Both the position numbers and the translations under genes were made by a program. A stretch of 64,000 nt of DNA from a bacterium (lineage in GTDB: Bacteria; Patescibacteriota; Microgenomatia; UBA8517): positions 755,096 through 819,095 of the forward strand of contig CP129472.1 in assembly GCA_030583725.1 (NCBI GenBank), in the 5' to 3' direction. This document shows positions 1 to 38,048 of this stretch, one piece after another; the stretch's first letter is position 1; every line of letters begins with the position of its first letter. The notes under the pieces are model-generated. The model saw nothing but the letters and a program-made list of their open reading frames with translations, was not told where the DNA came from and did not search any database.

Positions 1-127
1 ACTTCAGCCATTGATTCGCCTCTAAAAATCACGTTACCGTATGCATTTCTGGCAATGTGCATAATTTTATCTCCATTTTGTGATAGTGAGAATTCGTATT
101 TTTTATATATCATATTAATTTTTTAGA

Positions 128-2566
128 TTATGTAAAGATTGTATCACCTGATCTAATGACAGAAATGTTTGTTGGGTTTGCACCAACAACACTTGAGTCC
201 TGTTCAAAAGGTAAGATATTACCGGCATTTCTGACTCTGGCTCTAATAAAGATATCAGGGTCAGTTGTACTATGAGTAATGGTTACAGACTCGGTTCCTG
301 GTGTTCCTGATGAGCCTGTAGTTTCATAAACATCTATAAATGGAACATACCAAGTATCTTGTGGTGAAGTGGTTGTGGCAACTGGGAGTGTGTTTATTTC
401 ATAAGTGCTACCAGTTGTAAAACCTGCAATTGCTGGAAAAATAGTAACTTGGTTTGCACTTGTAACTTCCGTTATGTATGAAATTCCGGCAGGTGAAACA
501 CCCCTTATGAGGTCACCAACTTTGGCATTAGTGAATACACCAGAGTCAACAATCGTTGTGGTGTTTGATGTTGCATCTGCTGTTAAGCCTGTTGACGAAG
601 CTAGTGTAAACGTTGATCCTGTGTAGCTTGAATATCTCATTCTAAATTCAGTATTTGCTGAAGTATCAACAAGTCTAATTGTTCCACCAGTTGATTTACC
701 TGGAGTATCTGCCGTAATTGTTGCCCCCATTACTGCAGTTGTTGCCCCTGCTGACTGAACTGTTGCGTTGTATTCCGTTTTATCAATATCTCCACCCGAG
801 CCTGTTAATCTAAAGACTGCAATTTTATCTCCCTCTCTAGTGTTACTGACTGTAACAGTGGCTTTAGTAGGTGCGACACGCACAATACCATTGTCGTCAA
901 CAAGTTGAAAATTGTTAGCATCTGCCGTCAAATAATCTTCCAAAACTACTCCTGGTGCACAGAAGAACTTACCACCAGCGAATGTCCCAAATGGCGCTGA
1001 GGCAATAGGTGTAACTGCTGTTGCTGAACCATCTATTTCTACAGTTCCTGCTTGTGAACCTGTTAGGGTGTGGGTGGTTGCATGTGTTGCAAATGTTCCA
1101 CGACAGTTTCTAAGTGTAATGATTTTATCTGTGGTATTAATATTGACAATTGTACCTGTAGCACCTGATGTCTCTTGGGTAACAGTATCACCATCAACTA
1201 ATGTACCAGTTACAGAACCAGTGTAAACTAAACGATAGTCGGATCCGATATAGAACTGTCCCTGCACTCCGTCAGTTGTGGTAGTTCCTGTTTCTCCACG
1301 TCTGGTTGAATATTTACTAAATTGATAGACGTCTGCAAGTCCGTTTTGGTTACAGTCTATGACAATTGAGTAGTTTTCAGGTGTTCCATTTTCGTCAATA
1401 TCATATGATCCACCGGTTGCCAAGCCACCGTGGACAATTGTTGGTGGGCTAGCAAGGTCTGCAGGACCATAAACAGACGAGGAACCATCGATACTTCCAG
1501 TTTTTCCACCAGTTGCTGTAAAACCCTCATTGTTTGAAAGATCGGTGATAGGGTCACCAATTAAATAATATTCAAATGTTCCCGTCGCTGCAGCAGCACC
1601 CACTGATACTGAAGTGACAACGGCACGGGCAACACTGGAAATTGTCAACACATCACCAGCAGCTAGTGTTGATCCGTTTCCGCCATCAAAGTTAATTTGC
1701 TTATAACCTGTTTGGTTATCTAAATCATTACCTGTCTGAAGAGGAATAGGGTTACGACCTCCGTTAGTTAAGTCCACACTGTAATACGAGTATGACTTAC
1801 TATATTGTCTAGCAAAAACCAAGATATATCCCTCATCTGTTTCAACACCCAATTCTTTAACATTAATTAAAATATCAATGTGTCCATCGCCCCACCAGTC
1901 TGTTGAGCCCTTGTAGGCTACCAGATTTGCACTGTTCTGGTTAATATAAATATGGGTATTACTCTCGATTGTACCAAGTGTGTAAATATTACTCCAAAGC
2001 GATTCACCAGCAGAAACAGAGGCAGATGATTGAGTTGCAGTATGGGCATTACAAGTGATTGTTCCAGATGTTGAATCCCAGTCATTGGCGGATGCAAAAC
2101 TGTCAGGTCTAATCCAAAGAATACTTCCAGCTCCTGTTCCTTTAACATCTAAAAGTGTTCCGGCATCACCATCTGCGTGTGTTATATCAAGGCCAATGTC
2201 ACCCGCAACTATGTCAGTGTTATTGCATATAACTTTGACAATACCAACATTTGAACCCGTGACTCTATCCCAGTTTGCAGTTTTTAAAGCACCACCTGTT
2301 AAATGTTCAACTGTCGTGCGGTCTATAAACCATGGATCTTTGGCTCCAGAGTCAATAATTCCAATTGTGTACTCAGTAGGGGTCTGTGCCGACATTGGGA
2401 CACCATCGTCCATTTGGGTTAGTTCGTCAAAGAGATCTTGAAGGGCAGAATATAACTCGTTTACTGTACGAGTTCCTGTTGCTGAACCAGTCCATTCTAT
2501 GCGTTTTTGCCTGTTTTCTACGCCATAATAGACTGTAAAATCTCCACTTAAAATAGTATCTGCCAT
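128..2566 (-). CDS. Large (812 aa) Thr/Gly/Ser-rich protein, probable beta-helix/adhesin-like or fibre-like surface protein; no N-terminal signal peptide visible
   Basis: Uninterrupted 812-aa ORF; strongly T/G/S-biased composition with repetitive beta-strand-like segments; no recognisable catalytic motif. Confidence 0.5.
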   Translation of the reverse strand: MADTILSGDFTVYYGVENRQKRIEWTGSATGTRTVNELYSALQDLFDELTQMDDGVPMSAQTPTEYTIGIIDSGAKDPWFIDRTTVEHLTGGALKTANWDRVTGSNVGIVKVICNNTDIVAGDIGLDITHADGDAGTLLDVKGTGAGSILWIRPDSFASANDWDSTSGTITCNAHTATQSSASVSAGESLWSNIYTLGTIESNTHIYINQNSANLVAYKGSTDWWGDGHIDILINVKELGVETDEGYILVFARQYSKSYSYYSVDLTNGGRNPIPLQTGNDLDNQTGYKQINFDGGNGSTLAAGDVLTISSVARAVVTSVSVGAAAATGTFEYYLIGDPITDLSNNEGFTATGGKTGSIDGSSSVYGPADLASPPTIVHGGLATGGSYDIDENGTPENYSIVIDCNQNGLADVYQFSKYSTRRGETGTTTTDGVQGQFYIGSDYRLVYTGSVTGTLVDGDTVTQETSGATGTIVNINTTDKIITLRNCRGTFATHATTHTLTGSQAGTVEIDGSATAVTPIASAPFGTFAGGKFFCAPGVVLEDYLTADANNFQLVDDNGIVRVAPTKATVTVSNTREGDKIAVFRLTGSGGDIDKTEYNATVQSAGATTAVMGATITADTPGKSTGGTIRLVDTSANTEFRMRYSSYTGSTFTLASSTGLTADATSNTTTIVDSGVFTNAKVGDLIRGVSPAGISYITEVTSANQVTIFPAIAGFTTGSTYEINTLPVATTTSPQDTWYVPFIDVYETTGSSGTPGTESVTITHSTTDPDIFIRARVRNAGNILPFEQDSSVVGANPTNISVIRSGDTIFT

Positions 2567-2699
2567 ACGTTAATAACTAGTTTACTCTATTTAGTCTATG
2601 CCTTGTCAACTGACATTAACTGTATCAAATAAGTCGGAATTGATACATTTAGTCGCTAAAAGTTGTAGTTTAAAAAATTTACGTTCAAATAGAGCTGTT

Positions 2700-3173
2700 T
2701 TAGGGGTTTAAAACAGAAGACTTTGGAGAGTCAGTTTCAACCTTGAGTTCAGTCCCTGTTTGGGGTATTAAAAAGTTGTATATAGCAAGTAAAATGTAAA
2801 CAATGATGGGTATTAAAAGTAAAACTCCAGCATAGGAAATTGCCAAAGTCCAAAGTACTGGGGTAACAGTAGAACTGGTTGCCAAAATTTGAAATGCATA
2901 TATTTCTGCGACAAATCCTAAAACTAAAGAAATTAAAGCTTTTTTAAGATACTGACGTTCCATAATAGAAAGTATTAAGGTCACAGAGAGCATAATAGCA
3001 ACGGATCTGATAACAACTGCAACAAAAGTCATAGGATAAAGCTTGAAATAACTCTCTCTTAAAAAGAAAAGGGGACTGGTGACTACTAAATTTAAACTTC
3101 CTGCAAAGTAATCAAGCGCATATGCAACTATAAAAAGACCAAGTGTGATTACGAAAACTACTTCCTTTTTCAT
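2700..3173 (-). CDS. Small polytopic integral membrane protein (about 5 TM segments), function unknown
   Basis: 157-aa ORF, hydrophobic helices throughout. Confidence 0.45.
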   Translation of the reverse strand: MKKEVVFVITLGLFIVAYALDYFAGSLNLVVTSPLFFLRESYFKLYPMTFVAVVIRSVAIMLSVTLILSIMERQYLKKALISLVLGFVAEIYAFQILATSSTVTPVLWTLAISYAGVLLLIPIIVYILLAIYNFLIPQTGTELKVETDSPKSSVLNP

Positions 3174-3247
3174 ATTTACAATATAATCTATGAAGTCCCG
3201 TTTGTCTACTTGACAAATATTATATTAATAGTTATACTTTTAGTATA

Positions 3248-4489
3248 ATGCAGTTATATAAAAGAAAGGTTTTTGATAAAATTGAGCCCTACATAGGTGA
3301 TGAGACAGTAATTGTGCTTCATGGGGCAAGGCAGGTGGGTAAAACCCATATTTTGTATTATTTACGCGAATGGCTTAACATAAAAACTAAAAAGAATTTT
3401 TATTATGATCTGGAATACCCTGAATTATTAGAATTTTTTAATAAAGGTGCTGATTCTTTGATCTCTAAAATTACAGATGAAGGGTATAAAAAGGGTGAAG
3501 ATTGTTATGTGTTGATAGATGAAATACAGTATTTAGATAATCCAAGTTCGTTTTTAAAAATTATTGCTGATCATTATAAAAATATTCATCTTATTGTTTC
3601 AGGTTCATCTACATTTGAAATTAAATCAAAATTCAAAAACTCACTTGCGGGGAGAACTGTTTCTTTTGAAGTTTTTCCATTGGATTTTGAGGAATACTTA
3701 GAATTTTTAGGAGTTAATATAAAAATAACAGACCCATTATCTGAAATTACTACAGAAAAACTAAAAGAATTATATTTCAAATTTATAAAATATGGCGGTT
3801 ATCCAAAAGTTGTGCTTGAAAATGATGAAGAAAAGAAAAAACAGTTGTTATTACAGCTAATCGATACCTACATCAGAAAAGACATAAAAGACCTTGCAAA
3901 TATTAGTGATATTAAGAAATTTAACAATATGTTAAAAGTATTAGCTTCACAGTCTGGGCAACTATTGGATATGCAGTCACTTTCTCGAGAAATTGAGATA
4001 TCCTTAATTACGCTCAAGAAATATATCTCAATATTAGAAGAAACTTATGTTATTAAACTTGTTTCCCCATATAGTAAAAGTGCAAGTGTTGAAATAACTA
4101 AAACACCGAAGCTATTTTTCTATGATAGCGGTTTGCAGTCTATTTTATGGATGAACAATTTCCAAGATGTTGTTTTAGGTTCTGTTTTTGAAACAAACAT
4201 CTTTGGGGAACTATCTAAGGTATTTGATAGAAAAGATATTTCATTTTGGAGAACTAAAACTCACATGGAAATAGATTTTGTTATTGAAAAAAACATGGAT
4301 CCATACATACCAATCGAAGTAAAATTAAATTTTGGCAATTTCAACCAGAGAGCAATTAATACTTTTAATAAAAAATACAAACTTAATAGTTGGAAAATGA
4401 TTGGATTAAATGGTAAAAAAATAAATAGTAGCTTTATTTATCCGAAGGAAAATTTTATTTATCCTTGGGAGATTAAAACGCTAGTATAA
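3248..4489 (+). CDS. AAA+ superfamily ATPase of the DUF4143/archaeal-ATPase-like family
   Basis: Walker A GARQVGKT near N-terminus, Walker B-like VLIDEIQY, length about 410 aa typical of this family. Confidence 0.7.
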   Translation: MQLYKRKVFDKIEPYIGDETVIVLHGARQVGKTHILYYLREWLNIKTKKNFYYDLEYPELLEFFNKGADSLISKITDEGYKKGEDCYVLIDEIQYLDNPSSFLKIIADHYKNIHLIVSGSSTFEIKSKFKNSLAGRTVSFEVFPLDFEEYLEFLGVNIKITDPLSEITTEKLKELYFKFIKYGGYPKVVLENDEEKKKQLLLQLIDTYIRKDIKDLANISDIKKFNNMLKVLASQSGQLLDMQSLSREIEISLITLKKYISILEETYVIKLVSPYSKSASVEITKTPKLFFYDSGLQSILWMNNFQDVVLGSVFETNIFGELSKVFDRKDISFWRTKTHMEIDFVIEKNMDPYIPIEVKLNFGNFNQRAINTFNKKYKLNSWKMIGLNGKKINSSFIYPKENFIYPWEIKTLV

Positions 4490-4501
4490 TTAATTTTCAT
4501 T

Positions 4502-6826
4502 TTAAACTGTCGTGTCTTCAATCATTGAAATGGTTGTTGAGAAACCAGATGAAGTAATTGTTCCGACAGTTGAAGCGGGGTAATATCTTGTAGTATCACC
4601 ACCTGACGATTTTCTTACCCTAATATAAACGTCAGTATTGCCTGTGTAATTGTAGCTTTCTGTTGCAATTCCACTTGCGTTTGTATCTTCATTCATAAGC
4701 TGTAAGTCATCGCTGGTTCTATAAATTGCAGTTTGTGCGTTTTCAATTGGATTATTACTACCGTCAATAACTGTTATTGACAGAGTAACGGCATTTTGCA
4801 CTATTACTGTAGCTCCTGCCGTTCGGATTGAGGGTGTAGAACCCCCCCCAATAATACTGACCGTCATACTACCACTTGCAATATTTACATAAATAGCCTC
4901 GTTTCCAGTACTTCCATTTGTTTCTGCATAACCTGTAAATGTAACTCCAGTAAGTGTCATATCAGTTGCAGTTCCACTTATTTCAATGGCGTGTTGCGTC
5001 CCAGTGGTTTTTGTAAAGGTTGAATTTGAAACATTATCAGCATCTCCAGGCGAAGCAGAAGTAACTTTAGTATTGTAAAATTCACAATCGATTAAAGTTG
5101 CGCTGTTCTGCGTGAAGCTCGGACAATCTATAAAGACCATGCCGTTCAATGTGACAGTTGAGCGCAGGGTGACATTTGCGCCAATAACAGAAGTACCAGA
5201 GAAATCTATGTCCGCAGATGCGCTGTGACTCGCATTGAAGCGCCAGTAGTACGGAGTGTCCCGCGTGAATACGCAGTTAGTGAAGTGAATGTAATCGTCT
5301 GACCCTGTACCGTAGAACTCTATACCCAACTTGCTGTCATCTACATGACAATCCACATAACCGTTTGCTGGATCGGCTTGTCTAGACCATTGAAATGTTC
5401 GAAGGTTAATCTCTATTCCGATTTTTTCATTACCACCTATCTGGAGAGGTATCCAGACTGATACAGCAGAACCACTTTGGTTAAGTACGGGGATATATCC
5501 ACAACCACCGTTTACTGCAAAAATCAGATCATCGAATCTAAATGGGATGGTTGAAGAACCGCCCGCTAGAATTGCAGTACGCAACTCCCAGAGTTCATTC
5601 CACAGAATTGCTGGGGCTCCATAATAACCTGAGGAACCAAATTGCACGAGATCAAGTGACGCGAAGTTTGGTGTTCCTGCCGAACTATACTGACTTGTGG
5701 AATATGAGGGTTGTACAAGCCAGTTCACGCGAGCGTTTGGTGTGTCTGTTTTACTAAACTGGCCTCCTACGACCCATGCGCGCCAGTTGGATGTGTCCGA
5801 TCCAGCAAGAAAATATTTACCACCACGAGCCACTGTTCCCGAATCAAGATAATCACGCGGAGCGAGATGAAGGAATGTTCCAAAAATGAGATCACCTGTC
5901 GTTACATCTTGTGTCGCGGTCATATTAATTTCTATGGCATTGAGGGCAGTTGTGCTTGATGCTCCCGCATTTCTCGCTGAACCACGGAATGGGTTATATC
6001 CGGAGTCAGCCGTGGTAGTAATAGCTATCCCAGAAACTGTTTTGCCTGCAACGGAGGTGATGGTATTACTGCCCACCGCCGCATAAGTCCCACGGTCAAT
6101 AGCCCCTGTTGTACCTACAAGTGGAGAAATAAGAACAGACGGTACGACATCGAGCGGAATATAGGGTGGTATGCTTGTACCACTTGATCCATCTCTTACC
6201 TCCACCATACCCGCTTTACCATCATCCTGACCTCCACTCCACATACTTGGTGCTGACACTGTTGTTGATGTTGTAGGTTCAAATGAGTATGCTACACAAC
6301 TCCCGCCGTTTGCCGCATCACCGACAAATATGTTAACCCATGGTGGTAAATGTGAGGTGCCTATAGTAGTATCCGAAAAGCGGTGGGAAAATAAAAGCGC
6401 ATTTGCTTGTGATGTGGTTATATTAACACCGGTAAAGGGCAAGGTACTACTTGTGGCGCCATATGCTGTTGAGTTGGGAACAGCGTCGGCAACCGTTGTA
6501 CCATACACATCTCTGATAGAAATGACAGTGCCAACACACGTGTCAATAGCAAGTGGGAAAGTCACGTTTTCGGAAGAAGAAGTTGCCCGCAGCGCATAAA
6601 CTCCACCACCAGCACCGGTACTGGTAGATGACCGGATCAGTGTCCAGTTGCTTGAAGAAACAGGGGTGCCGACAGAGGTGCTTGGAGTTGTGAATGTAGC
6701 AGTACCGTCTTTCCCAACGAACGCTAGAAGTAAATCTCCCGCCTCATGCACGGGCATATCCATAACCATGTTCGCGGTAGTCGCCGCTGCGTAAATTGTT
6801 GTTGCGTAGTCACGAATTCTAGCCAT
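4502..6826 (-). CDS. Large (774 aa) Thr/Ser/Gly-rich beta-helix-like protein, paralog of the 9092-11413 gene
   Basis: C-terminal ~150 aa nearly identical to the 9092-11413 product (GSTGNEAIYVNIASG...PIENAQTA...LMNEDTNASGIATE...IRVRK), shared central parallel-beta-helix-like repeats (CPSFTQNSA..DCEF.N.K.TSA..GD.DN.SN.TF) and shared N-terminal motif M-x-x-IRD...DLL-A. Confidence 0.55.
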   Translation of the reverse strand: MARIRDYATTIYAAATTANMVMDMPVHEAGDLLLAFVGKDGTATFTTPSTSVGTPVSSSNWTLIRSSTSTGAGGGVYALRATSSSENVTFPLAIDTCVGTVISIRDVYGTTVADAVPNSTAYGATSSTLPFTGVNITTSQANALLFSHRFSDTTIGTSHLPPWVNIFVGDAANGGSCVAYSFEPTTSTTVSAPSMWSGGQDDGKAGMVEVRDGSSGTSIPPYIPLDVVPSVLISPLVGTTGAIDRGTYAAVGSNTITSVAGKTVSGIAITTTADSGYNPFRGSARNAGASSTTALNAIEINMTATQDVTTGDLIFGTFLHLAPRDYLDSGTVARGGKYFLAGSDTSNWRAWVVGGQFSKTDTPNARVNWLVQPSYSTSQYSSAGTPNFASLDLVQFGSSGYYGAPAILWNELWELRTAILAGGSSTIPFRFDDLIFAVNGGCGYIPVLNQSGSAVSVWIPLQIGGNEKIGIEINLRTFQWSRQADPANGYVDCHVDDSKLGIEFYGTGSDDYIHFTNCVFTRDTPYYWRFNASHSASADIDFSGTSVIGANVTLRSTVTLNGMVFIDCPSFTQNSATLIDCEFYNTKVTSASPGDADNVSNSTFTKTTGTQHAIEISGTATDMTLTGVTFTGYAETNGSTGNEAIYVNIASGSMTVSIIGGGSTPSIRTAGATVIVQNAVTLSITVIDGSNNPIENAQTAIYRTSDDLQLMNEDTNASGIATESYNYTGNTDVYIRVRKSSGGDTTRYYPASTVGTITSSGFSTTISMIEDTTV

Positions 6827-6949
6827 AGGTCCCCCCTAAGAGATTCTTAAAAATACTTTTGATACATTGGCTATTTACGTTTATGATAAATGTCAAAAAC
6901 GATTCTTCTGAAGGTGTTACAATAACTGATTTAATTTTTCTACCATTTA

Positions 6950-7315
6950 TCATTTTTTGATATTTTTAATTGCTCTTTTGACAAGTTGATCAAGATCTAG
7001 GTCACTTTTAACAATATAATCAGTTGCTCCTCTTGTTCCGTCTTCTGATTCAGTTAAATTTGAGGCAACAATAACGGGTATATTTGCAAGTTTGTTGTCA
7101 TCTTTGACCCTTCTTAAAAATTCGTAACCATCAATTCCTGGAAGTAAAATATCAAGAATAATAACATCAGGCAGCCACTCGTTAAGTATGACCAACCCCT
7201 CTTCTGCGGTTCTGACTGTTTTTACCAAGAAATTAGATTCTTCAAATTTATATTTCATTGCCTTGTTTATAAATTTGTCGTCTTCTATAATTAATACTCT
7301 TTTTTTCATATTCAA
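6950..7315 (-). CDS. Stand-alone response regulator receiver (CheY-like) domain protein
   Basis: 121 aa; acidic pocket (IIEDD), phospho-acceptor Asp in VIILDILLPG, conserved T and K positions. Confidence 0.85.
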   Translation of the reverse strand: MNMKKRVLIIEDDKFINKAMKYKFEESNFLVKTVRTAEEGLVILNEWLPDVIILDILLPGIDGYEFLRRVKDDNKLANIPVIVASNLTESEDGTRGATDYIVKSDLDLDQLVKRAIKNIKK

Positions 7316-7366
7316 ATAAATTAATTGGTTATTTTAATTAACACCTTTTTCTTTTTAACCATATAT

Positions 7367-8968
7367 TTATCTTAGTGGAATTGACACTAAAACTAAAGTT
7401 CCAGTTTTAGTGTTACCTAATTTAATATCGCCTCCGTGGGCTTTAATAATTAGTTTTGATAGGTAAAGCCCCAGTCCTGCACCTTCAGTATCAACCATTT
7501 TTGCATTTGTTGCTCTTGAAAACTTGGCAAAAATATTATCTCTTTCATTGACGGGTATTCCTATACCATCGTCTTTTATTTTAATTACTATACTATTATT
7601 TGATTTATTGATGTTAATCTTTGCAAGCCCTTCTTTGCTAGAATATTTAAAAGCGTTGTGAATTATGTTATATATTGCTTGAAAGAAAAGTTTTTCATCT
7701 ACTTCTAATTTATATATTTTAGCTTGACTTACTAAGTCATATTTTATGTTTTTACTATTAAACTCCTTACTGATTTGTTTTAACGTATCAGTTACTATTT
7801 GGTTAAGATTTACCTCTTTTTTATCAAGTTCTATCTTGTCATTTTCAAGCTTAGTGATATTTAAGACGTTTCCTATCAGTTCAATCATTCTTTTAACTGA
7901 TATGTGAGTATCTTTAAGTATTCTTCTTTGCCTTGAGTTTAGCTTGTTCTTAGAATCTTTAAGTAATATTTCTGTAAACCATTTTATAGAAGTTGCAGGG
8001 GTTCTTATTTGATGAGAAATTAAAGAAATAAAGTCTTTTCTTAAACTGTCAAGTTGATTTAGTTTATCTATAGTTTTTTCAATTAGTGAGTTTCCAATAA
8101 AAAGGCCGATTATGAGAGAAAATGCGGTAATTACAACTGAAATTAATATGTTTTTTATAAACTCTATCTGTATTTCTTTTGCGATGTCGCCTTTAGACTT
8201 ACTGGCCACAATGTATAGACCTTGATCATTTCCTCTAAATATCTCCTTATAAGCATATATTCTTGGTTTACTATCGATCCCTGTCGTTTCTATAAGACCT
8301 TCGTCTTCGTTAAGTAAGCTTAATAGGGGGTCGTTTGGAAATTCTTTTCCAATCAAATTTTCAGTTTCAGGTATTCTCGCTAGAACTACACCTTTTTTAT
8401 CAAGAACTGTAACAACTACGTTCTTATCTATTTCAAGATTTGAGATGAGCTCATCTAGCCAGTCGAGATTTAATGTGGCAAATACAACACCACCTCCACT
8501 GTTTAAAAGTGGATAGCCGAAATTAATACTGGCTTTGTTGGTTGACCTACTTATTACATATTCACCAATACTATAATCCTTGGTTTCAATTGCTTTTTTG
8601 AAAAAAACTCTATCGGAATGATTTATATCTCCATCTGTTTCTATAGCAGAACAGATAAGATTTCCTCTTATGTCAGTCACTCCAAAATTTCCGTATCTAC
8701 GGTATTTTGAAAGGAGCTCGGATAAGTAGGTTGCACACTTATAATCCTTACTCATTACTTCTGGTACTACTGAAAGTGATATTAACAACTGCCTTGCTGA
8801 CTCAACAATCTGAATATTTTCGGATGCCACTATTTGAGTGACATTACTGATATCTTTTTTTGCCTCACTTTCAGATTTTTTATAGCTAGTTACGTTTAAA
8901 TAGATGACAAATAAAAAGATTGGTATTAAGGTTAAGGTGTTTAATAAAAATATTTTTTTCCTAATCAT
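7367..8968 (-). CDS. Sensor histidine kinase with N-terminal TM, ~230-aa extracytoplasmic sensor domain, second TM, HisKA and HATPase_c
   Basis: H-box SHQIRTPATSI, N-box IIHNAFKYS, G-boxes DDGIGIP and GAGLGLYLSK; two hydrophobic helices bracket the sensor domain. Confidence 0.85.
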   Translation of the reverse strand: MIRKKIFLLNTLTLIPIFLFVIYLNVTSYKKSESEAKKDISNVTQIVASENIQIVESARQLLISLSVVPEVMSKDYKCATYLSELLSKYRRYGNFGVTDIRGNLICSAIETDGDINHSDRVFFKKAIETKDYSIGEYVISRSTNKASINFGYPLLNSGGGVVFATLNLDWLDELISNLEIDKNVVVTVLDKKGVVLARIPETENLIGKEFPNDPLLSLLNEDEGLIETTGIDSKPRIYAYKEIFRGNDQGLYIVASKSKGDIAKEIQIEFIKNILISVVITAFSLIIGLFIGNSLIEKTIDKLNQLDSLRKDFISLISHQIRTPATSIKWFTEILLKDSKNKLNSRQRRILKDTHISVKRMIELIGNVLNITKLENDKIELDKKEVNLNQIVTDTLKQISKEFNSKNIKYDLVSQAKIYKLEVDEKLFFQAIYNIIHNAFKYSSKEGLAKININKSNNSIVIKIKDDGIGIPVNERDNIFAKFSRATNAKMVDTEGAGLGLYLSKLIIKAHGGDIKLGNTKTGTLVLVSIPLR

Positions 8969-9091
8969 TTATATTTACTATAGTACTTTAAATAACACCA
9001 TTAGTCTGTAGAGTCGTCATGAGCGAATATTCATTTGATGGTTCAATTTAAGTTTATGCTAAATGATATTCCAAATACTTTGAGTTGTCTA

Positions 9092-11413
9092 TCAGGCGTT
9101 TGGATCTTCAGTTAGAATAATTGTAGTGCTAAAACCTTCATTAGTAATTGTACCAGTGCTTGAGGTTGGTATGTATTTTGGACCGCCCGATGAAGCTTTA
9201 CGGACCCTTATGTATATGGATGTGTTAGAAACATAATTAAAGTCTTCAGTTGCAATACCTGAGGCATTGGTATCTTCATTCATAAGTTGTGTGTCGTCAA
9301 TTGATTTAAAGACTGCTGTTTGAGCATTTTCAATTGGGTTGTTGTTTTTGTCCACTACGGTGATAGTTATATCAACAGTGTTATTGATATTGACTGTGGC
9401 ACCAGCAGTTCTTATGCTTGGCGTGCTACCACCACCCGAAATATTAAGTGTAACTATTCCACTGGCGATGTTGACATAAATAGCCTCATTGCCGGTTGAA
9501 CCATTTGAGGAAGCAAAGCCGGTGAAACTATTACCAACAAAAGAAATAGTTGAAGCTGCACCGCTTACTTCGATAGCATGACCTGTCCCTGATGAAATAA
9601 AAGTACAGTTAGAAATATTATCCAGGTCACCTAAGGTGGCAGAGGTAATTTTGGAGTTGGAAAAGGTGCAGTCGTCAATGACGGCGGAGTTTTGCGTGAT
9701 GGTGGGGCAAGTGGTAAAAGTCATACCGTTAAAAGTGGTGACTGCTCTAAGTTGGACATCTCCTGCACCAATAATGGTGAGTCCTGAAAAGTCGTAGATG
9801 GCGCTAGCTGATGAGGAGGAGTGAATACGCCAGTGATATTTACTTTGGCTGGAAATCACTGATGAGCGGTGAATAACGGTGTCGGTAGCGCCTGCGTAAT
9901 AGGTAAAACCCACTGTGTTGTCAATACCATTGTAGTTGACTATTTTTTTAGAGTAGTTTTTTTGACTGGGAAATTCGATGGCGGTTGAGTCAAGGCTAAG
10001 ATAGAGAGGATTAGTTCCGCCGTCACCAAACTGAATGGCCTGCAAACAAAGCATTTGTGATGAACCTTGTAAAATAGAGGAGTAGCGATTTTTGTTATTG
10101 GCGGCAGATTTGACAATAGCAGGAATATCAATTGGTTCTGTGGAGTTGCCTCCTACTAGGGCAAATGTATCCATTGCCCAAGTAGGTCCAAAGGCTACTT
10201 GTTGAGTTAAGACACCAAGTCCTCCTGTCCATATGCCGTAACGTCTAATATCGGAATTGGTGATTGTGCTATTACTGTCAACCGTATCTGTGTTAGATGC
10301 ATTAATTACAATTGGTACAACAGATCCAGGTGGAGTTGCAACGTCAGAGCCGTGTACTTGCCAGATTTTATAGTTTTGTCCTGCAGTGGTACCTGATTTC
10401 ATACCAAACCATACTCCTCGTCCAGATCCTAGGGTAGACAAGCGCTGATTTTGTACAGGGGTTGCGTGCCTAAAGTGAGTTAGGATGTTTCTTTCCCCCA
10501 CATTATAGCGTGAAGCTGCAACGACTCCCTCTGCACCACTAACTTGATTGGCGGTTGCTGCATTGGTTACTCCAGAGAAAGACATAAACGAACCCTTGTC
10601 GTTGCCGATATCGACTACGGCAGTTGCGACTGTTGCATCGTTGGCGGTTTTACCTGCTAAGGTTGTACCCCAGTTGGTATCGGCGGTTGCAGCAATAGCA
10701 CTGTTACCGTCATATGCAATACCGAATGAGGGGGTGATATAAATTGAGTCATCGCTAGATGGATATGGGGGAATTACGGTCGCACCTCCAGATGGCTGAC
10801 GAATTTCAATAACCGCCTTGGTTCCACTACCCGAGACCATGGCGCTGGCTGTGTAGGCAGTGGTTACACCAGTGCTACGTTTAAAAAACCAACCTAATCC
10901 TAGACCTTCGGCTGAGCCATCAACTTTATTTTCTTCTTGTAAAACAGAGTTGACAAAGTGAATGGATGGGGCTGCGGCAGTACTGGTGACGAGAGTTAAA
11001 ACCAAAGAGTTGGAGTCGGAAGTGGTGAGAGTTGGTAGAGCAATGGCTGTACCTGTTGAAGTTGTATTGGTTTGAAGCATTGGACTACCACCTGTATAGG
11101 ATTGGTAGGCGTCTCTAATTGCGACCACGATACCAGAGTATGTTTCGTTGACGGTTGAAGTAAAAGCTACATCACCTTCACCGGATGCGGCGGCATATTT
11201 CCAGTAAACTGTGGTAGAACACGAGTTGTTACGGTTGAATAAGTTGTTCCATGACCCCACACCATTGGAACAACCCCAAGTAGGGGTACCAGTATCGCCC
11301 ACACAGATAGCGATGAGCAAGTCATTTTCCTCGTAAGCGCAGATGGGAATAGTTAAACCTGCATCTGTTGTGACACTTTCGTAGGCAAATGATGAGTCGC
11401 GTATTGCAGGCAT
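9092..11413 (-). CDS. Large (773 aa) Thr/Ser/Gly-rich beta-helix-like protein, paralog of the 4502-6826 gene
   Basis: See the 4502-6826 feature; the conserved C-terminal module and beta-helix repeats are shared, N-terminal halves have diverged. Confidence 0.55.
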   Translation of the reverse strand: MPAIRDSSFAYESVTTDAGLTIPICAYEENDLLIAICVGDTGTPTWGCSNGVGSWNNLFNRNNSCSTTVYWKYAAASGEGDVAFTSTVNETYSGIVVAIRDAYQSYTGGSPMLQTNTTSTGTAIALPTLTTSDSNSLVLTLVTSTAAAPSIHFVNSVLQEENKVDGSAEGLGLGWFFKRSTGVTTAYTASAMVSGSGTKAVIEIRQPSGGATVIPPYPSSDDSIYITPSFGIAYDGNSAIAATADTNWGTTLAGKTANDATVATAVVDIGNDKGSFMSFSGVTNAATANQVSGAEGVVAASRYNVGERNILTHFRHATPVQNQRLSTLGSGRGVWFGMKSGTTAGQNYKIWQVHGSDVATPPGSVVPIVINASNTDTVDSNSTITNSDIRRYGIWTGGLGVLTQQVAFGPTWAMDTFALVGGNSTEPIDIPAIVKSAANNKNRYSSILQGSSQMLCLQAIQFGDGGTNPLYLSLDSTAIEFPSQKNYSKKIVNYNGIDNTVGFTYYAGATDTVIHRSSVISSQSKYHWRIHSSSSASAIYDFSGLTIIGAGDVQLRAVTTFNGMTFTTCPTITQNSAVIDDCTFSNSKITSATLGDLDNISNCTFISSGTGHAIEVSGAASTISFVGNSFTGFASSNGSTGNEAIYVNIASGIVTLNISGGGSTPSIRTAGATVNINNTVDITITVVDKNNNPIENAQTAVFKSIDDTQLMNEDTNASGIATEDFNYVSNTSIYIRVRKASSGGPKYIPTSSTGTITNEGFSTTIILTEDPNA

Positions 11414-11422: not shown

Positions 11423-12037
11423 TTAGAATATCATATTGAAATAGTCATATATCAGGTTTGTTCTATTTGGCCAGCCAGTGGTTGCATTGGTAAAGTCTGA
11501 AGCTCCCTTGATATATCTATATGCTCCAGTCGATAATTCTTTTTGTATAAACCATGCACCGTCTTTATTAACAAATCCATAATAAGTATCTGTTCCTGTG
11601 TCATCAACCTCTGTGATGTTATATCCATCTGTTGGCTTTTTCTCAGATGGGTCAATTTTTACACCCGCTGAATCTTTAATAGATATGGTTCCTGGTCCCG
11701 GCATACTTCCAAAGAATGAGGCTTCTGCTTTTCTGGTAAAAACAGTTAAAAGAAAAAGGGAACCACCTGCAGCACCTATTAATTTTAAAAACTTTCTGCG
11801 TTCAGGGTCATAATCTGGGTTTTTAATCTTTTTTATTTGGTCGGGAATAATATCCAAAACTGGTTCAATTGATATAACCTTTTGCTTGACAGGTAGTATT
11901 GCCACCAAAAAATAAAACGCAAGTGGGGAAAACACTAAAGCAATAAAAAGTTCTATAAAATTTTGTGAAGACAGCATTCCTGTTACCAGCATAAAACTGG
12001 TGATTATAAAAGAGTAAAATACTATTAGTTTTCTCAT
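11423..12037 (-). CDS. Membrane protein with two N-terminal TM helices followed by an internal twin-arginine-like motif (ERRKFLKLIGAAGGSLFLL...AEA) and a soluble C-terminal domain
   Basis: 204-aa ORF immediately upstream (same strand) of the 773-aa protein gene; RRxFLK plus h-region plus AxA resembles a Tat signal but is at residues ~80-105. Confidence 0.4.
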   Translation of the reverse strand: MRKLIVFYSFIITSFMLVTGMLSSQNFIELFIALVFSPLAFYFLVAILPVKQKVISIEPVLDIIPDQIKKIKNPDYDPERRKFLKLIGAAGGSLFLLTVFTRKAEASFFGSMPGPGTISIKDSAGVKIDPSEKKPTDGYNITEVDDTGTDTYYGFVNKDGAWFIQKELSTGAYRYIKGASDFTNATTGWPNRTNLIYDYFNMIF

Positions 12038-12040: not shown

Positions 12041-12274
12041 TTATATAAATCTATAGACCGAAATTAGGGACAATACAATTAGAAAAGAAATAAAAAAGAA
12101 AACACTTCTTTTATGCTTTGCTAAATGAAAGTCATTATTGTTTGTCAAAAAAGTTGTTAGAAAATAAACGGGAATGGGTAAAAATATTATTGATAGTGTG
12201 GAATTAGTAATTACAGAACCAACTAGTATAAAAATAGAAAGTATGCAAAGTAAAAATAAAAATAGCTTGTTCAT
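12041..12274 (-). CDS. Small two-TM membrane protein
   Basis: 77-aa hydrophobic ORF in the same minus-strand gene string. Confidence 0.3.
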   Translation of the reverse strand: MNKLFLFLLCILSIFILVGSVITNSTLSIIFLPIPVYFLTTFLTNNNDFHLAKHKRSVFFFISFLIVLSLISVYRFI

Positions 12275-12275: not shown

Positions 12276-12587
12276 TTATTCTTGCTTTAAATTTTTTACA
12301 AGATTTGAAAACTCTTCAAAAGTAGTGGTTAGACCTAAAACTTCTCTTAAGGCTCTGATTTCTGCCTTAATCATGGTTAGGTCGGCGGTAATGTCGTTTT
12401 CATTTACTACAACGTTTGCGTTTTCAGTAGAAATAGGTTTGTCTGTTGCAATAACTTGCGGTGTTGTTTGTTGCAATGAAGTTACCTTCGCTGTGTCCTT
12501 TAATACCTTAATAGTATAAATGTTTAGCCCAATTGCAAATAGAACTAATATTAGAATTGCAAGCAAAACCCTTGTGTATTTATCCAT
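12276..12587 (-). CDS. Small N-terminally membrane-anchored coiled-coil protein
   Basis: 103-aa ORF, single N-terminal hydrophobic helix then charged helical region. Confidence 0.3.
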   Translation of the reverse strand: MDKYTRVLLAILILVLFAIGLNIYTIKVLKDTAKVTSLQQTTPQVIATDKPISTENANVVVNENDITADLTMIKAEIRALREVLGLTTTFEEFSNLVKNLKQE

Positions 12588-12620: not shown

Positions 12621-13646
12621 ATGCTTAAGTACACAAAGAATCCATTTTTAATAAGTTTCGCCTTTTTACTATTTTCGATTCTTTTTCTTTCAATATTTTT
12701 TAATAAAATTTCAAGAGATAAGTTGGTTGAACAAATCCAACACAGGCAACAAATGTCAGTTAGGGCCGGTGCGAATTCAGTAGAAAGTTTTTTGACCTCT
12801 GTTGGTAGTATGACTACGCTTTTAGCAATTGATCCAAGAATTGAAGCTTTTGACGAGTTTATAAAAGCTTGGCAAGATGAAAGTATTTCTGGAGTTGTGG
12901 CAGCTGATAAAAATGGTCTTGTTTACTTACATTCTGAAAGGGGTAATGTAGAAAGCGAAGGTCAATCAGTAATAGAAAGGGACTATTTTGAATGGGCAAG
13001 AACAGCAAAAAAAGGTGAATATAAAGTTTTCCCTGCAATTGTCTCGAAGTTGGGCTCATCTAAGGGTAAATATATTTTACCAATTGCATCACCGGTTGTA
13101 AAAAGTGACAACTTTGATGGGGTGGTTGTTGTGGCAGTTGTTTTGTCAGACTTGGTAGAACACTATATTAATGGTTTGGAAATATTAGAGTCAAGCGATT
13201 ATTATCTAGTAACCAATAGGGGAGAAATTATATATTCAACAATACCTAGTTTAATTGGCTATAAATTGGAGGATTTGTTAGCTAATAAATTTTTAGGTTC
13301 ACAAATAATATATGACCTGATCAGAGAAGAAATGGCCAGTGAGGGTGACACTGTGCTAAATTTGGCAATTCCGAACTCGGATAGAAGTCATAAACTAGAA
13401 CCATATTTAGTTAATGCTTCTACAATAAAACTAGCAGACAGAAACTGGAAACTAGTTACAACAACACCTGAAAATGATTTAAAGGCTTTTACCTTTAACT
13501 TTTATAGTAATCAGATTTTGGTAATATTTATTACTGTGGCTATTTTTATAATGTTAACCTTAAGAGCTTCAAAACAAACGGGCTACGACCAAGCAGTAGA
13601 AGATGAACATCAAAGGCATAACTTAGGTAAACACTCCAAATCTTGA
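12621..13646 (+). CDS. Double-TM protein with a ~270-aa extracytoplasmic Cache-like sensor domain and no output domain
   Basis: TM helix at N-terminus and at C-terminus (ILVIFITVAIFIMLTL); architecture parallels the sensor part of the neighbouring histidine kinase. Confidence 0.4.
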   Translation: MLKYTKNPFLISFAFLLFSILFLSIFFNKISRDKLVEQIQHRQQMSVRAGANSVESFLTSVGSMTTLLAIDPRIEAFDEFIKAWQDESISGVVAADKNGLVYLHSERGNVESEGQSVIERDYFEWARTAKKGEYKVFPAIVSKLGSSKGKYILPIASPVVKSDNFDGVVVVAVVLSDLVEHYINGLEILESSDYYLVTNRGEIIYSTIPSLIGYKLEDLLANKFLGSQIIYDLIREEMASEGDTVLNLAIPNSDRSHKLEPYLVNASTIKLADRNWKLVTTTPENDLKAFTFNFYSNQILVIFITVAIFIMLTLRASKQTGYDQAVEDEHQRHNLGKHSKS

Positions 13647-13744: not shown

Positions 13745-13963
13745 ATGGATGACAAACCAACAAAAATAAAAGTAAAACTAGAAAGTCTCCCTGATTTATT
13801 GACTGTTCGTGAAGTTAGTGACTTGCTTCGTGTTTCACCGCTTACAATTAAAAGATGGGGTAAAAGAGGTAAACTTCCTGCAATTAGAATTAATTCAAGA
13901 GGGGATAGACGTTATAAAAAAGAAGCAATACTTTGGCTTCTGGGTATGCAGGCCAAAGACTAA
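13745..13963 (+). CDS. Small helix-turn-helix DNA-binding protein (excisionase/MerR-like HTH_17 type)
   Basis: 72 aa; LTVREVSDLLRVSPLTIKRWGKRGKLPAIRI is a classic excisionase-family HTH. Confidence 0.65.
   Translation: MDDKPTKIKVKLESLPDLLTVREVSDLLRVSPLTIKRWGKRGKLPAIRINSRGDRRYKKEAILWLLGMQAKD
13915..13952. repeat. Left copy of a ~38-bp imperfect direct repeat (3' end of the HTH gene), repeated at 15288-15326
   Basis: aaaaagaagcaatactttggcttctgggtatgcagg versus aaaaagaagcaatattgtggctcctgggtatgcaaa; about 33/37 identical. Confidence 0.8.
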
Positions 13964-14017
13964 CCCTCTTTACTTCTTGATATGTTTCCACTTTTGGTAT
14001 ATAATTATACTGATTAT

Positions 14018-14564
14018 GGAAACGATAAAATTGTTAAATAACAAAAATGTTCCATTGTTTACTCTAAATGAACTTGGGGGTATTTTTGCTATTTCAAATA
14101 GGGGGACTCTTTATAAAAAAATTGAGCGCCTGATAAGTAAGGGTATATTAAAATCGCTTACAAAAGGTAAGTATGAATATTTACTTCAAAATACCAACGA
14201 TTTTACAAGAGCAAATTTTTTATATCAAAGTTCATATATTTCACTTGAGTCCGCACTTTCTTTTTATTCGATAATTACACAATTTCCATATGAAATAACA
14301 TCTATTGCAGTCAAAAAAACTAAAAATATTACATCCAATGACAAGATGTTTTCGTATGCTCAAATTAGTCCTAATTTCTTTTTTGGATATGAAAAAAAAG
14401 AAGATTTTTTGATTGCAACTCCAGAAAAAGCATTACTCGACTATCTATATTTTGGAAGTAAAGGCTTAAGAAAAATAGATTTAGATGAAATGGATCTATC
14501 TAAAATTAACAAAAAGATTTTTAATAAATGGGGAAGTATAATGGGTGTTAAATATAGATTATGA
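14018..14564 (+). CDS. AbiEi-like antitoxin (type IV TA, wHTH transcriptional regulator family)
   Basis: Start taken at internal ATG (METIKLL...); SYISLESALSFYSIITQFP motif typical of AbiEi; 4-nt overlap with downstream AbiEii gene. Confidence 0.6.
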
Positions 14565-15277
14565 TTACTAACATACAACTAAAAGATTTGTCAAAGTTTT
14601 ATAAAATTGATGAATTTACAATTTTTAGAGAATATTTACAAATTCTAATTTTAAGTTATATCTATCAAGAAAGAAAAAGTGAAAAAATTGTTTTTAAAGG
14701 TGGAACTGCATTGCGATTAATGTATGGATCGTCACGATTTTCTGAAGATTTGGACTTTTCGACCACTTTGACATTTAAAGAAATTAAAGACTTTGTTCTA
14801 AATTTAGGAAATAAGACAAAAAAAGAATTGCCCGAGCTAAAGTTTACAGAAATTTACCAAGGCAAGGAAGGCCTTAGATACAACATTAAATACGAATCAA
14901 AGATTTTCAAGTTTCCTTTAAATTTAAGACTAGATTTTCATATTGTTAAAAGTATTAAAAATATTGATAAGAGTGTTTTGACAACTAGATTCCCAGTCCT
15001 TATTTTCCCAACAATTTATCATTTGAATAAAAAAGAGATACTGTCAGAAAAACTTAGATGCCTTAAAACACGTTTTAAGGGTAGAGACATTTTTGATATC
15101 TGGTATTTATTTTCAACAGGAGAAGTTATAAGTAATAAAAAATATAGTGAAACTTATAAAAAGAATATTCAAGAATTTGATGACAACGACTTAGCTCGTG
15201 ATCTTGGTAAATTTTTACCACTATCTCAAAGAGCAATACTGCCAGAACTTAAAAAAACATTATTAAAGTATTTTTAA
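14561..15277 (+). CDS. AbiEii/AbiGii-family nucleotidyltransferase toxin (DUF1814)
   Basis: Hallmark motif FKGGTALRLMYGSSRFSEDLDFS; size 238 aa. Confidence 0.8.
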   Translation: MITNIQLKDLSKFYKIDEFTIFREYLQILILSYIYQERKSEKIVFKGGTALRLMYGSSRFSEDLDFSTTLTFKEIKDFVLNLGNKTKKELPELKFTEIYQGKEGLRYNIKYESKIFKFPLNLRLDFHIVKSIKNIDKSVLTTRFPVLIFPTIYHLNKKEILSEKLRCLKTRFKGRDIFDIWYLFSTGEVISNKKYSETYKKNIQEFDDNDLARDLGKFLPLSQRAILPELKKTLLKYF

Positions 15278-17182: not shown

Positions 17183-17806
17183 ATGGAATATATTGACAAG
17201 TTACCATATTTTAACAAGGTTACTTTGGGGGTAGCCTTATCTAAGTCTGGCCAAAATTTGGATTATTGGATCAAAACAAGGCTAAAGAGTGGGGAAATAA
17301 TTGCCTTTAAAAAGGGGTTGTTTGTATCTAAAATGTATTTAGCTAGAATTGAAGAAAGTACGGGGATATACGAAAAATATATTCAGTTTGTTGCAAACAT
17401 TCTAAGATACCCTTCGTATATATCGCTTGAATATATGCTTAGTTTATATGGAATAATTCCTGAAGGTATTTATGTTATTACCTCAATTACAACAAAATCA
17501 TCAAGACTTTTTACTAATAAACTTGGAAATTTTAGATATCAAAGTATAAAGAAAAACTTATTTACAGGATATAAATCATTAGATTACAGAGATAATCCTG
17601 TAAGAATTGCAACAAAAGCTAAAGCGTTATTTGATACAATTTATTTAAGAAGTTTTGGCAATTCAAGTTTAGAATATGAACTATCTGAGGGTTTAAGGTT
17701 AAACTTTGGAGTTTTCTCAAAAGAAGACATAGATGAATTTAAAAACTATGTCAATTTAAGTAAATCTGTTAAGATGAGAAAGGCGATTAAGATATTAAAA
17801 TGGTAA
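17183..17806 (+). CDS. AbiEi-like antitoxin (second copy)
   Basis: PSYISLEYMLSLYGIIPE motif; 7-nt overlap with the following AbiEii gene. Confidence 0.6.
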   Translation: MEYIDKLPYFNKVTLGVALSKSGQNLDYWIKTRLKSGEIIAFKKGLFVSKMYLARIEESTGIYEKYIQFVANILRYPSYISLEYMLSLYGIIPEGIYVITSITTKSSRLFTNKLGNFRYQSIKKNLFTGYKSLDYRDNPVRIATKAKALFDTIYLRSFGNSSLEYELSEGLRLNFGVFSKEDIDEFKNYVNLSKSVKMRKAIKILKW

Positions 17807-18597
17807 TTATAGAAGAATTAAAAAAGGTAGTAGAAAACAATAAAAGTAATCCCAATCCTGAATATAGAAGGAATATTTTAAAAGAAAGTTTACAAGTTTA
17901 TATATTAAATTTTATATATACATCAAAATATAAAGATCTAATATTTACAGGAGGAACCTGTCTTAGGAAATTTTATGATCTACCCAGAATATCCGAAGAT
18001 CTTGATTTTAATTATGAAAATGCAGATTTTAACTTCGATGATTTTCAAAATGATTTAAACAAATATCTTATAAAACAAGTTGGATTTAGTAACTTTAGCC
18101 TAAAATTTAATGGAAGAACTGTTTTGATTAAATTACCAATACTTAGAGAAGTTGGATTTGCTGGGTCAAATGATTCAGAGGTGCTATATTTAAAAATCGA
18201 TTTTGCGCAGAGTAAAGGTGGAAACACAAATAGTAAGGCATACACCAAAAACGGATTTTCATTTATTGCAAAGTGTTATGATTTGGATACTCTTTTTGTT
18301 AATAAAGTCGATGCTTTTTTAAATAGGGTTTATAAGAGGGGCAATATCCAAAAAGTGAACTTCAAAGGAAGAGATGCGTTTGACATATATTGGATGTTCA
18401 ATGATGGTAGAAAATTGGGGCTTGATCCTAAACTTCTTACTAAGAATTTGGTATCTAAAATATTAGATAAATCAAAGCAGATAAAGCCTGATGAATTATA
18501 TTCTGATTTAAGTAATTTTTTTAGTGATCAAGCTTTTGCCAGACAATTTTGCGATAACTATTATGATCTACTGAAAAGTAGCATTAATAACCTTTGA
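17800..18597 (+). CDS. AbiEii/AbiGii-family nucleotidyltransferase toxin (second copy)
   Basis: IFTGGTCLRKFYDLPRISEDLDFNYE motif. Confidence 0.8.
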   Translation: MVIIEELKKVVENNKSNPNPEYRRNILKESLQVYILNFIYTSKYKDLIFTGGTCLRKFYDLPRISEDLDFNYENADFNFDDFQNDLNKYLIKQVGFSNFSLKFNGRTVLIKLPILREVGFAGSNDSEVLYLKIDFAQSKGGNTNSKAYTKNGFSFIAKCYDLDTLFVNKVDAFLNRVYKRGNIQKVNFKGRDAFDIYWMFNDGRKLGLDPKLLTKNLVSKILDKSKQIKPDELYSDLSNFFSDQAFARQFCDNYYDLLKSSINNL

Positions 18598-19525: not shown

Positions 19526-19541
19526 GATACAATCTACGATC

Positions 19542-20855: not shown

Positions 20856-20871
20856 TCTATATAAAAATAAA

Positions 20872-23098: not shown

Positions 23099-23124
23099 CA
23101 TTCAACCGTGATATACTACAGGGT

Positions 23125-38007: not shown

Positions 38008-38048
38008 CCTTTATTGAAAATTAGATATATAAGGTGTAAAAATAATTA

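Follow-up and report, generated by a model that had tools for sequence, protein, structure and literature searches.

Chromosomal relatives of a three-gene structural set of tailed phages in a Microgenomatia bacterium: a candidate domesticated appendage module

Why does a bacterium of the Patescibacteriota carry, within its core chromosome, two large and partly dissimilar paralogous beta-proteins on either side of a two-component system? The question is raised by a stretch of 64,000 nucleotides (contig CP129472.1 of assembly GCA_030583725.1, positions 755,096 to 819,095; lineage Microgenomatia, UBA8517), henceforth called the window, which encodes a protein of 774 amino acids (aa; protein A), one of 773 aa (protein B), and one of 812 aa on the same strand (coordinates in Table 1). 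An original prediction made from the letters alone described A and B as giant Thr/Ser/Gly-rich beta-helix proteins resembling phage tail fibres or variable surface proteins, and the 812-aa protein as their third paralog. The analysis reported here leads to a different reading, held with a probability of roughly 0.55, in which the locus is a domesticated phage appendage module and A and B are alternative subunits that would dock on the 812-aa protein.

A and B are indeed paralogous, with 36% identity in a full-length alignment (BLASTP, E 3e-111), and their composition is as described (Thr, Ser, Gly, and Ala together 43-44%); the word "giant" is generous for about 775 aa. Amino acid identity in 50-residue sliding windows was 14-41% over residues 1-510 of A and 55-74% over residues 525-773, which bears out the claimed partition into a variable and a conserved part, but the C-terminus is not "almost identical" as had been stated, reaching only about 60-74% at the protein and ~60% at the DNA level. 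So low a DNA identity in the conserved module rules out that the two genes underwent gene conversion recently. The N-terminal motif M-x-x-IRD...DLL-A, noticed earlier in both proteins, was near-invariant among 41 family members (M1, I4, R5, D6, G30, D31, L32, L33, and A35). Neither A and B nor the 812-aa protein matched Pfam, PHROGs, PADLOC, or PDB sequences, whether searched as single sequences or as profiles. At least 80 homologs of A were among the matches listed, and a profile search of 1.84 billion cluster representatives retrieved 4320 that match the A-like family at E<=1e-3.

The fold of A was predicted with AlphaFold2 (AF2) on a 41-sequence alignment and came out nearly all-beta (predicted local distance difference test (pLDDT) 91.1, predicted template modelling score (pTM) 0.87), with a beta-sandwich at residues ~1-220, a beta region at ~230-500, a beta-helix-like part at ~500-675, and a second beta-sandwich at ~680-774. 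In the beta-helix-like part, short strands follow one another regularly (residues ~500-675), and the Foldseek matches of this part to GH87 beta-helix (glucanase) domains were weak (E 1e-4, low template modelling (TM) score). The C-terminal domain is a transthyretin/CnaB-like beta-sandwich according to both AF2 and Foldseek. Over its full length, the model of A matched a protein of an uncultured member of the Caudovirales (Foldseek against BFVD, E 1e-38, TM score 0.72), and many weaker matches were obtained, among them minor tail proteins of mycobacteriophages, a tailspike, and a structural protein of the cyanophage Syn5, which infects Synechococcus (A4ZRD5, 622 aa, E 3.5e-4). Both A and B belong, as chromosomal representatives, to a large family of tailed-phage virion proteins that has no name yet.

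Relatives of A were located on 47 IMG/VR viral contigs as well as on very large phage-like contigs. Open reading frames (ORFs) of 58 loci were clustered, which yielded the A-like proteins (c0), two groups of 812-like neighbours (c2 and c3), and a small third gene (c1). The A-like gene adjoined a gene of 450-900 aa (c2 or c3) in 49 of the 56 loci, and a c1 gene of 130-470 aa then followed in 35 loci. The viral contigs are genuine tailed phages: locus L023 encodes a T4-type terminase (TerL) and portal as well as a tail sheath, and a collagen-like fibre gene directly precedes its triad; L060 has a portal/MuF; and L011, which is IMG/VR contig IMGVR_UViG_3300002138_000051, has an amidase and RecA. 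Their GC content ranged from 28% to 69%, so that the family is spread over phages with many different hosts; among the loci were myoviruses and very large phage-like contigs. Past the triad, after one or two small genes, loci L016, L017, L024, L028, and L029 have an ORF of 2300-3050 aa.

The 812-aa protein has composition alone in common with A (BLASTP, E 5.6) and was therefore rejected as a third paralog; it is rather the counterpart of the phage partner. A hidden Markov model (HMM) of its family matched the c3 neighbours of A-like genes in colinear fashion and over their whole length at 13 viral loci (E down to 3e-23), and a combined profile of 812-like and c3 proteins aligned with c2 (hhalign, 94.8%, E 5e-8). 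Identity between the host protein and the c3 partners of phages is only ~25-28%. In bacteria, more than 1063 homologs were found at 50-84% identity, those with names belonging to Woese-, Beckwith-, Levy-, Roizman-, and Blackburnbacteria, WWE3, and Microgenomates, and the 812-aa protein is strongly conserved across Microgenomates. Its AF2 model (pLDDT 83) had only meaningless low-scoring Foldseek matches in the PDB. The third member of the set was traced via the c1 HMM, which matched the N-terminal ~200 residues of ~435-aa Pfam Beta_helix proteins of candidate phyla radiation (CPR) bacteria (E 1e-9 to 4e-5); phage c1 and CPR beta-helix protein matched reciprocally at E 1e-9 to 1e-10. In all Microgenomates loci that were examined, the 812 gene is followed, after a few other genes, by one for such a Beta_helix protein, and that of the present genome (~433 aa) lies just left of the window (L001:18455-19756). 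As A and B, the 812-aa protein, and the beta-helix protein are all present, the chromosome holds the complete phage set.

Weak cross-matches also linked the N-termini (~60-90 residues) of the 812-like, c2, and c1/Beta_helix proteins, and a stand-alone ORF of 91 aa with that N-terminal domain precedes the 812 gene in Roizmanbacteria (L008:9578-9853). The sequences of the three families suggest that they may have a common N-terminal attachment domain.

The connection to an isolated phage came from a tblastn search with a c2 protein, which retrieved gene 53 of Syn5 ("structural protein", 45% identity, E 6e-105) besides matches in S-TIP28, Maribacter phage Panino, Virus Rctr197k, and a Paraglaciecola virus. 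Genes 53, 54, and 55 of Syn5 are consecutive (NC_009531.1, 37982-41677), the first two being annotated as structural proteins. Gp53 falls into the c2 family (E 4.5e-149) and gp55 into the c1 family (E 3.4e-34); for gp54, the match to the A family is confined to the C-terminal part (hmmsearch, E 1.3e-14; hhalign, 97.9%, E 6e-13, with residues 607-774 of A on 486-621 of gp54). The HMM of the 812 family alone did not reach Syn5 gp53, and profile-profile comparison was required (hhalign, 95.8%, E 7.7e-9, 232 columns). Searches with the A-like proteins themselves gave only Virus Rctr197k (tblastn of A against INPHARED) or no match (tblastn of the L023 protein); isolated phages were reached only via the 812-like partner. 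In Panino, the genes are ordered c2, two A-like genes, c1, and endolysin, and the C-terminal domain is the only part common to the two A-like proteins.

The earlier comparison with tail fibres holds in so far as A and B are structural proteins of phage type, but the closest characterised proteins are Syn5 gp53 and gp54, which are not tail fibres; the true tail fibre of Syn5 is gp46, encoded elsewhere in its genome. Syn5 reportedly carries a horn at the vertex opposite the tail, and antibodies to the two horn proteins are said not to have blocked infection. We know of no function and of no recognised relatives of this horn so far. Gipson et al. 2014 (PMC4102127) assigned gp55 and gp58 to knob-like capsid decorations by bioinformatics only, and the reference list of that paper includes Raytcheva et al. 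2014 (J Virol 88:2047), according to whose title "two novel proteins" compose the Syn5 horn.

The window is core chromosome of a Microgenomates (CPR) bacterium: it carries rplJ, rplA, rplK, and nusG at 24.5-27.6 kb as well as topA, genes for a penicillin-binding protein (PBP) and serine hydroxymethyltransferase (SHMT), gmd, glycosyltransferases, and four tRNAs. Gene order was compared among bacterial loci, and one arrangement recurred: downstream of the 812 gene come genes for small coiled-coil proteins and for a protein of ~280 aa, then the Beta_helix gene, two or three copies of tatA, tatC, and a gene for a PrsW-like protein. It was found in the window genome (L001), L007 (GCA_041643075.1), Roizmanbacteria (L008), L009, WWE3 (L061), and Levybacteria (L062). 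In WWE3, this cluster adjoins hrcA, nusA, infB, rpsO, and pnp. Levybacteria also have the order of the window, with a B-type gene (1251 aa; same N-terminal motif, MPAVRDYTFAYE...NDLLIA), a dCache kinase, a receiver, an A-like gene (855 aa), and an 812-like gene. L009 has three A-like genes interleaved with two kinase/receiver pairs; the kinase lies between B-type and A-type genes in both L062 and L009, a kinase/receiver pair adjoins the A-type gene in L058, and the receiver is kept with the kinase in L009, L058, and L062. The linkage of A-like genes (one to three per locus) to a two-component system is conserved in four genomes, and L058 also has a dCache_1 gene of 361 aa similar to the 341-aa gene of the window.

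That a histidine kinase and a receiver-only regulator lie between the paralogs was confirmed with Pfam (kinase: PF00512, E 1.2e-12; PF02518, E 3.4e-23; dCache_1). As to the suggestion that they control expression, the linkage is conserved, but the 121-aa regulator consists of a receiver with no DNA-binding output domain in Pfam, so direct transcriptional control is unlikely.

Two of the compared loci deserve separate description. L009 (CAZRGC010000002.1, 225 kb) is labelled as an uncultured Gammaproteobacteria metagenome-assembled genome; it carries a Microgenomates-type cluster (three A-like genes, two kinase/receiver pairs, 812-like, Beta_helix, TatA/TatC) and is probably mis-binned. In L058:12338-17895, the gene next after the A-type gene is 812-like and of CPR type (659 aa); a second 812-like gene, of phage type (576 aa), and a phage-type c1 gene come next, before the contig ends. 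This arrangement may represent a phage or prophage junction.

With the chromosomal setting established, two explanations without a domesticated function can be weighed. Prophage hallmarks (integrase, terminase, portal, capsid, head, tail, and lysis genes) were absent from the ORFs scanned near the locus with Pfam and PHROGs. The locus could nonetheless be an unrecognised but complete mobile element, i.e., a virus or satellite with its remaining genes diverged beyond detection, given that many neighbouring small ORFs lack a Pfam or PHROG match and that CPR phage proteins are notoriously divergent (PMC6509639). We consider this the least probable of the explanations, since core genes flank the cluster in several phyla (e.g., hrcA, nusA, and infB in WWE3) and since no terminase, portal, or capsid signal was obtained here, though such signals were readily detected in the viral loci. 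The second explanation, an inert remnant of an old prophage, whose decay spared tail-fibre or appendage genes and among which chance insertion placed the two-component system and further genes, would agree with the phage type of the proteins, with the extra phage-type 812-like and c1 genes directly downstream of the chromosomal pair in L058, and with the serine recombinase and defence genes elsewhere in the window. This is improbable as well: the ORFs are intact at 774, 773, and 812 aa, the gene order is kept across candidate phyla, and CPR homologs of the 812-aa protein number more than 1000. Furthermore, synonymous divergence (dS) is saturated, yet positional orthologs are 57-68% identical at the amino acid level, which points to long-term purifying selection.

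The two parts of A have different closest relatives. Residues 1-510 are 79% identical to a protein of phage L011 and 56-61% identical to positional orthologs, whereas residues 511-774 are 66-68% identical to the positional orthologs and 52% identical to the L011 protein; nonsynonymous divergence (dN) over residues 1-510 was 0.20 against L011 and 0.32-0.41 against the positional orthologs. The GC content of L011 (33.9%) is compared with 34.3% for the window. In B, the N-terminal half is 52% identical to a protein of phage L060 and 48% to the Levybacteria protein L062_1251, and the C-terminal part is 60% identical to A and 63% to L009_767. The proteins are thus mosaics, and the A-type and B-type N-terminal halves are two old subfamilies with their own relatives in Microgenomates genomes and phages. 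Saturation of dS in all pairs means that the mosaic events are old and that dN/dS along the alignment was not computable. A recent transfer of the N-terminal half of A between phage and host was considered and ruled out by a nucleotide identity of 68% and a third-position identity of 41%.

These relationships bear on the original interpretation of A and B as cellular variable surface or receptor-binding paralogs whose N-terminal and middle parts diverged by diversifying selection, possibly under transcriptional control of the two-component system. The conserved/variable partition on which it was built is real, and single-nucleotide polymorphisms (SNPs) cluster in B in one other sample: contig L002 (SRR22388160) is identical to the window over positions 1-8689 and then shows 21 SNPs, all in 8690-9626, which spans the 5' end of the kinase gene, the intergenic region, and the last ~180 codons (3' end) of B, inside which the contig ends. 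Diversifying selection does not account for the N-terminal halves, however, as these belong to old lineages with separate relatives in genomes and phages; with dN/dS not computable, A identical in three independent samples, and the regulator lacking a DNA-binding domain, we regard the interpretation as decidedly improbable. The SNP cluster, a single observation, suggests a recombination or diversity hotspot at 8690-9626.

The partition between A and B is better approached via the partner protein. Conservation in the A-like family as a whole was flat along the length, highest at residues 1-90 and lowest at 690-774. When 42 A-like proteins were grouped by neighbour class (c2-type or c3-type), HMM positions 640-750 alone co-varied with the class of the partner (0.395 within against 0.266 between classes, reached in 0 of 2000 permutations), whereas four other regions, serving as internal control for relatedness, had ratios of 0.98-1.00; the conservation of residues 1-90 was independent of partner class. 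This co-variation indicates that the C-terminal module co-evolves with the 812-like partner, and A and B would keep this module while differing in their N-terminal halves because one partner is common to both. The C-terminal module of A and B is better explained as a putative docking surface for the 812-like partner.

How such proteins would leave the cell was addressed by a search for export signals. In agreement with the original prediction, no signal peptide or transmembrane segment was found in A or B (maximum Kyte-Doolittle score below 1.6 over 19 residues), and the AF2 model of A has a confident beta-strand from residue 3. A, B, and the 812-aa protein were also without the double-arginine (RR) motif and hydrophobic N-terminus of a twin-arginine translocation (Tat) signal and without any hydrophobic segment, in contrast to the small neighbouring proteins. 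In the 204-aa membrane protein, two N-terminal transmembrane helices are followed by an internal twin-arginine motif of the RRxFLK type (RRKFLKLIGAAGG...AEA) and by a C-terminal domain of ~100 aa; it alone has such a motif when set beside the 812-aa protein and the two paralogs. The Tat-like motif reported earlier is thus real, and the architecture is kept in two other genomes (L007 and L058). The three small membrane proteins had been placed before the 812-aa gene, but they precede the 773-aa gene; the 812-aa gene is preceded by a single protein of 157 aa, which is conserved upstream of the 812-like gene in L007 (c7 HMM, E 1.6e-82). For the 77-aa and 103-aa proteins, no homologs were found in the other loci. 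As candidate export routes, Tat co-export (through tatA/tatC) or the neighbouring membrane proteins of 157 and 204 aa may be considered. A precedent may be seen in Sec/Tat dual-targeted membrane proteins, of which the Rieske protein of Streptomyces is reportedly one: the 204-aa protein resembles them in its N-terminal transmembrane helices, internal twin-arginine motif, and hydrophobic stretch, and tatA/tatC belong to the conserved cluster here. It differs in having no cofactor-binding domain, and a link to the export of A and B is speculative.

Starting from the homology to the phage triad, the non-prophage context, the synteny with a two-component system and tat genes, and the co-variation with the partner, the following assembly is proposed. 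The three proteins would form a phage-derived fibre or appendage, with the strongly conserved 812-aa protein as its common core, on which A and B would dock as alternative subunits via their common C-terminal beta-helix/beta-sandwich module. The two different N-terminal beta-sandwich halves would be exposed and would most plausibly bind different surfaces, be it of a partner cell, a substrate, or a phage. The sensor kinase would tie deployment to an external signal via protein-protein signalling and not via direct DNA binding. A more specific version, which is put forward tentatively and which we hold to be possible but doubtful, is that Microgenomates domesticated the horn module as a cell appendage or adhesin with a gp53-like core, a gp55-like beta-helix part, and exchangeable gp54-like tips (A and B) that would have N-terminal halves in common with phages, switched by the kinase and exported by an unconventional, possibly Tat-linked route. 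If a domesticated appendage or adhesin were true, it would be the first cellular role for the module and would give a handle on the function of the Syn5 horn.

What makes the proposal attractive is its reach. The presumed horn genes of Syn5 belong to a very large phage family that travels as a three-gene set, and a superphylum of ultra-small, probably episymbiotic bacteria keeps this triad as conserved chromosomal genes next to a sensor kinase. To our knowledge, few surface or host-attachment determinants of CPR bacteria are known other than type IV pili, which makes a conserved phage-derived appendage a strong candidate. The locus moreover amounts to a natural experiment on which end of the protein binds the partner and which binds the target.

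Several points weigh against the proposed appendage. The N-terminal ~480 residues of A and B are unrelated to gp54, of which only the C-terminal ~136 residues align. The phage role of the triad is itself poorly known; gp53 and gp54 are presumed to be the two horn proteins, and the knob assignment of gp55 is bioinformatic only. The interaction of A and B with the 812-aa protein is predicted from sequence. The triad proteins have no signal peptide, transmembrane segment, or anchor, which leaves surface display unexplained, and the adjacency of tatA/tatC may be mere conserved synteny of small genomes. No A-like gene lies close to the 812 cluster in L007 and L008; A-like genes are hence accessory, while the 812 and beta-helix genes are core. 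Lastly, the flanking defence-type genes (two AbiE systems and PDC-S01) fit a role in phage interaction as well as one in adhesion.

An alternative is an anti-phage role, in which A and B would mimic the appendage subunits of phages that infect this lineage and either spoil progeny virions or occupy the phage's structure or receptor, with the two-component system sensing infection or envelope stress. It is consistent with the N-terminal half of A being closer to the protein of the low-GC phage L011 than to positional orthologs, with a locus interrupted and flanked by PDC-S01 and two AbiEii pairs, with accessory A-like genes in one to three copies, and with SNPs between two samples that cluster at the 3' end of B. 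We nevertheless judge it unlikely, as A, B, the 812-aa, 204-aa, and 157-aa proteins, and the beta-helix protein have no match in PADLOC-DB 2.0, where only the inserted AAA_14/DUF4143 ATPase is matched. The 812 and beta-helix genes are, in addition, conserved at housekeeping level and lie beside core genes, which is unusual for defence, and the low identity between phage c3 and the host 812-aa protein makes mixed assembly uncertain.

A domesticated appendage may further be compared with known systems. The Syn5 gp53-gp54-gp55 set has the same three families in the same neighbourhood, and its proteins are likewise beta-rich and without signal peptides. It differs in that the genes of the window are chromosomal in a CPR bacterium and not among virion genes, that A and B carry the long N-terminal part foreign to gp54, that a beta-helix is inserted in the gp55-like protein of the window genome, that two A-like paralogs enclose a two-component system, and that the cluster is linked to tatA/tatC. 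Tail fibres and tailspikes, including minor tail proteins of actinophages, resemble A and B as Thr/Ser/Gly-rich beta-proteins with a beta-helix-like segment and modular mosaic evolution, and a collagen-like fibre gene adjoins the triad in some phages; A and B differ by having no Pfam or PHROGs family match and by a partner-specific module at the C-terminus instead of the N-terminus. Tailocins, extracellular contractile injection systems (eCIS/PVC), and gene transfer agents are alike in that phage structural genes persist as conserved, host-regulated parts of a cellular chromosome, but sheath, tube, baseplate, capsid, and lysis genes are missing here, where only the appendage triad is present and no release mechanism is evident.

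Table 1. Features of the locus in window coordinates (+ and -, strand).
Feature	Position	Strand	Basis or remark
812-aa protein, gp53-like partner	128-2566	-	ORF; family HMM, hhalign
157-aa polytopic membrane protein	2700-3173	-	four transmembrane-like segments; directly upstream of 812-aa gene
AAA_14/DUF4143 ATPase	3248-4489	+	Pfam; PADLOC PDC-S01, E 4e-73
Paralog A, 774 aa, A-type of gp54-like (c0) family	4502-6826	-	ORF, translation
C-terminal module of A, residues 511-774	4505-5296	-	common to B; residues 607-774 common to Syn5 gp54
Receiver-only response regulator, 121 aa	6950-7315	-	Pfam PF00072, residues 7-114
Sensor histidine kinase, dCache_1 + HisKA + HATPase_c	7367-8968	-	Pfam; between B and A
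Paralog B, 773 aa, B-type N-terminal half and A-kind C-terminal module	9092-11413	-	ORF, BLASTP
C-terminal module of B, residues 511-773	9095-9883	-	identity to A
204-aa membrane protein	11423-12037	-	stop codon 9 nt upstream of B start codon
77-aa small membrane protein	12041-12274	-	hydrophobicity
103-aa small membrane protein, head of same-strand gene string	12276-12587	-	hydrophobicity
dCache_1-only protein, 341 aa, divergently transcribed	12621-13646	+	Pfam, E 3.5e-18

The minus strand of the first 12.6 kb of the window is a string of genes running from the membrane proteins of 103, 77, and 204 aa through the 812-aa gene. The AAA_14/DUF4143 ATPase lies on the opposite strand between A and the 157-aa/812-aa genes, is not found at this position in Levybacteria L062 or in L009, and is probably outside the module. 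Promoter and terminator scans remained at background level. Ahead of A, the kinase, and the 812 gene (within 6827-6949, 8969-9091, and 2567-2699), the short motifs AAACKTAAAT and AATGTATCAA are present at chance level, with matches in 27/100 and 10/100 shuffles, respectively.

Around and within the module, defence-type genes were noted, i.e., the PDC-S01 ATPase and two AbiEii toxin genes (13809-15277 and 17183-18597, both +), each of the latter with a partner ORF upstream. Further along, within 35638-40526, the gene for a KAP-family P-loop NTPase of 789 aa lies ahead of one for a large serine recombinase of 571 aa. The recombinase itself (38811-40526) is 27 kb from the locus, and its 3' end overlaps a tRNA-Trp on the opposite strand (40425-40496), which may mark the edge of an integrated element. 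Finally, the plus strand at 18644-24021 encodes a 7TM_transglut membrane protein, an ATPgrasp_ST/Zn_protease fusion, and three to four RimK-like ATP-grasp ligases, a cluster that may constitute a peptide-ligation or modification system.

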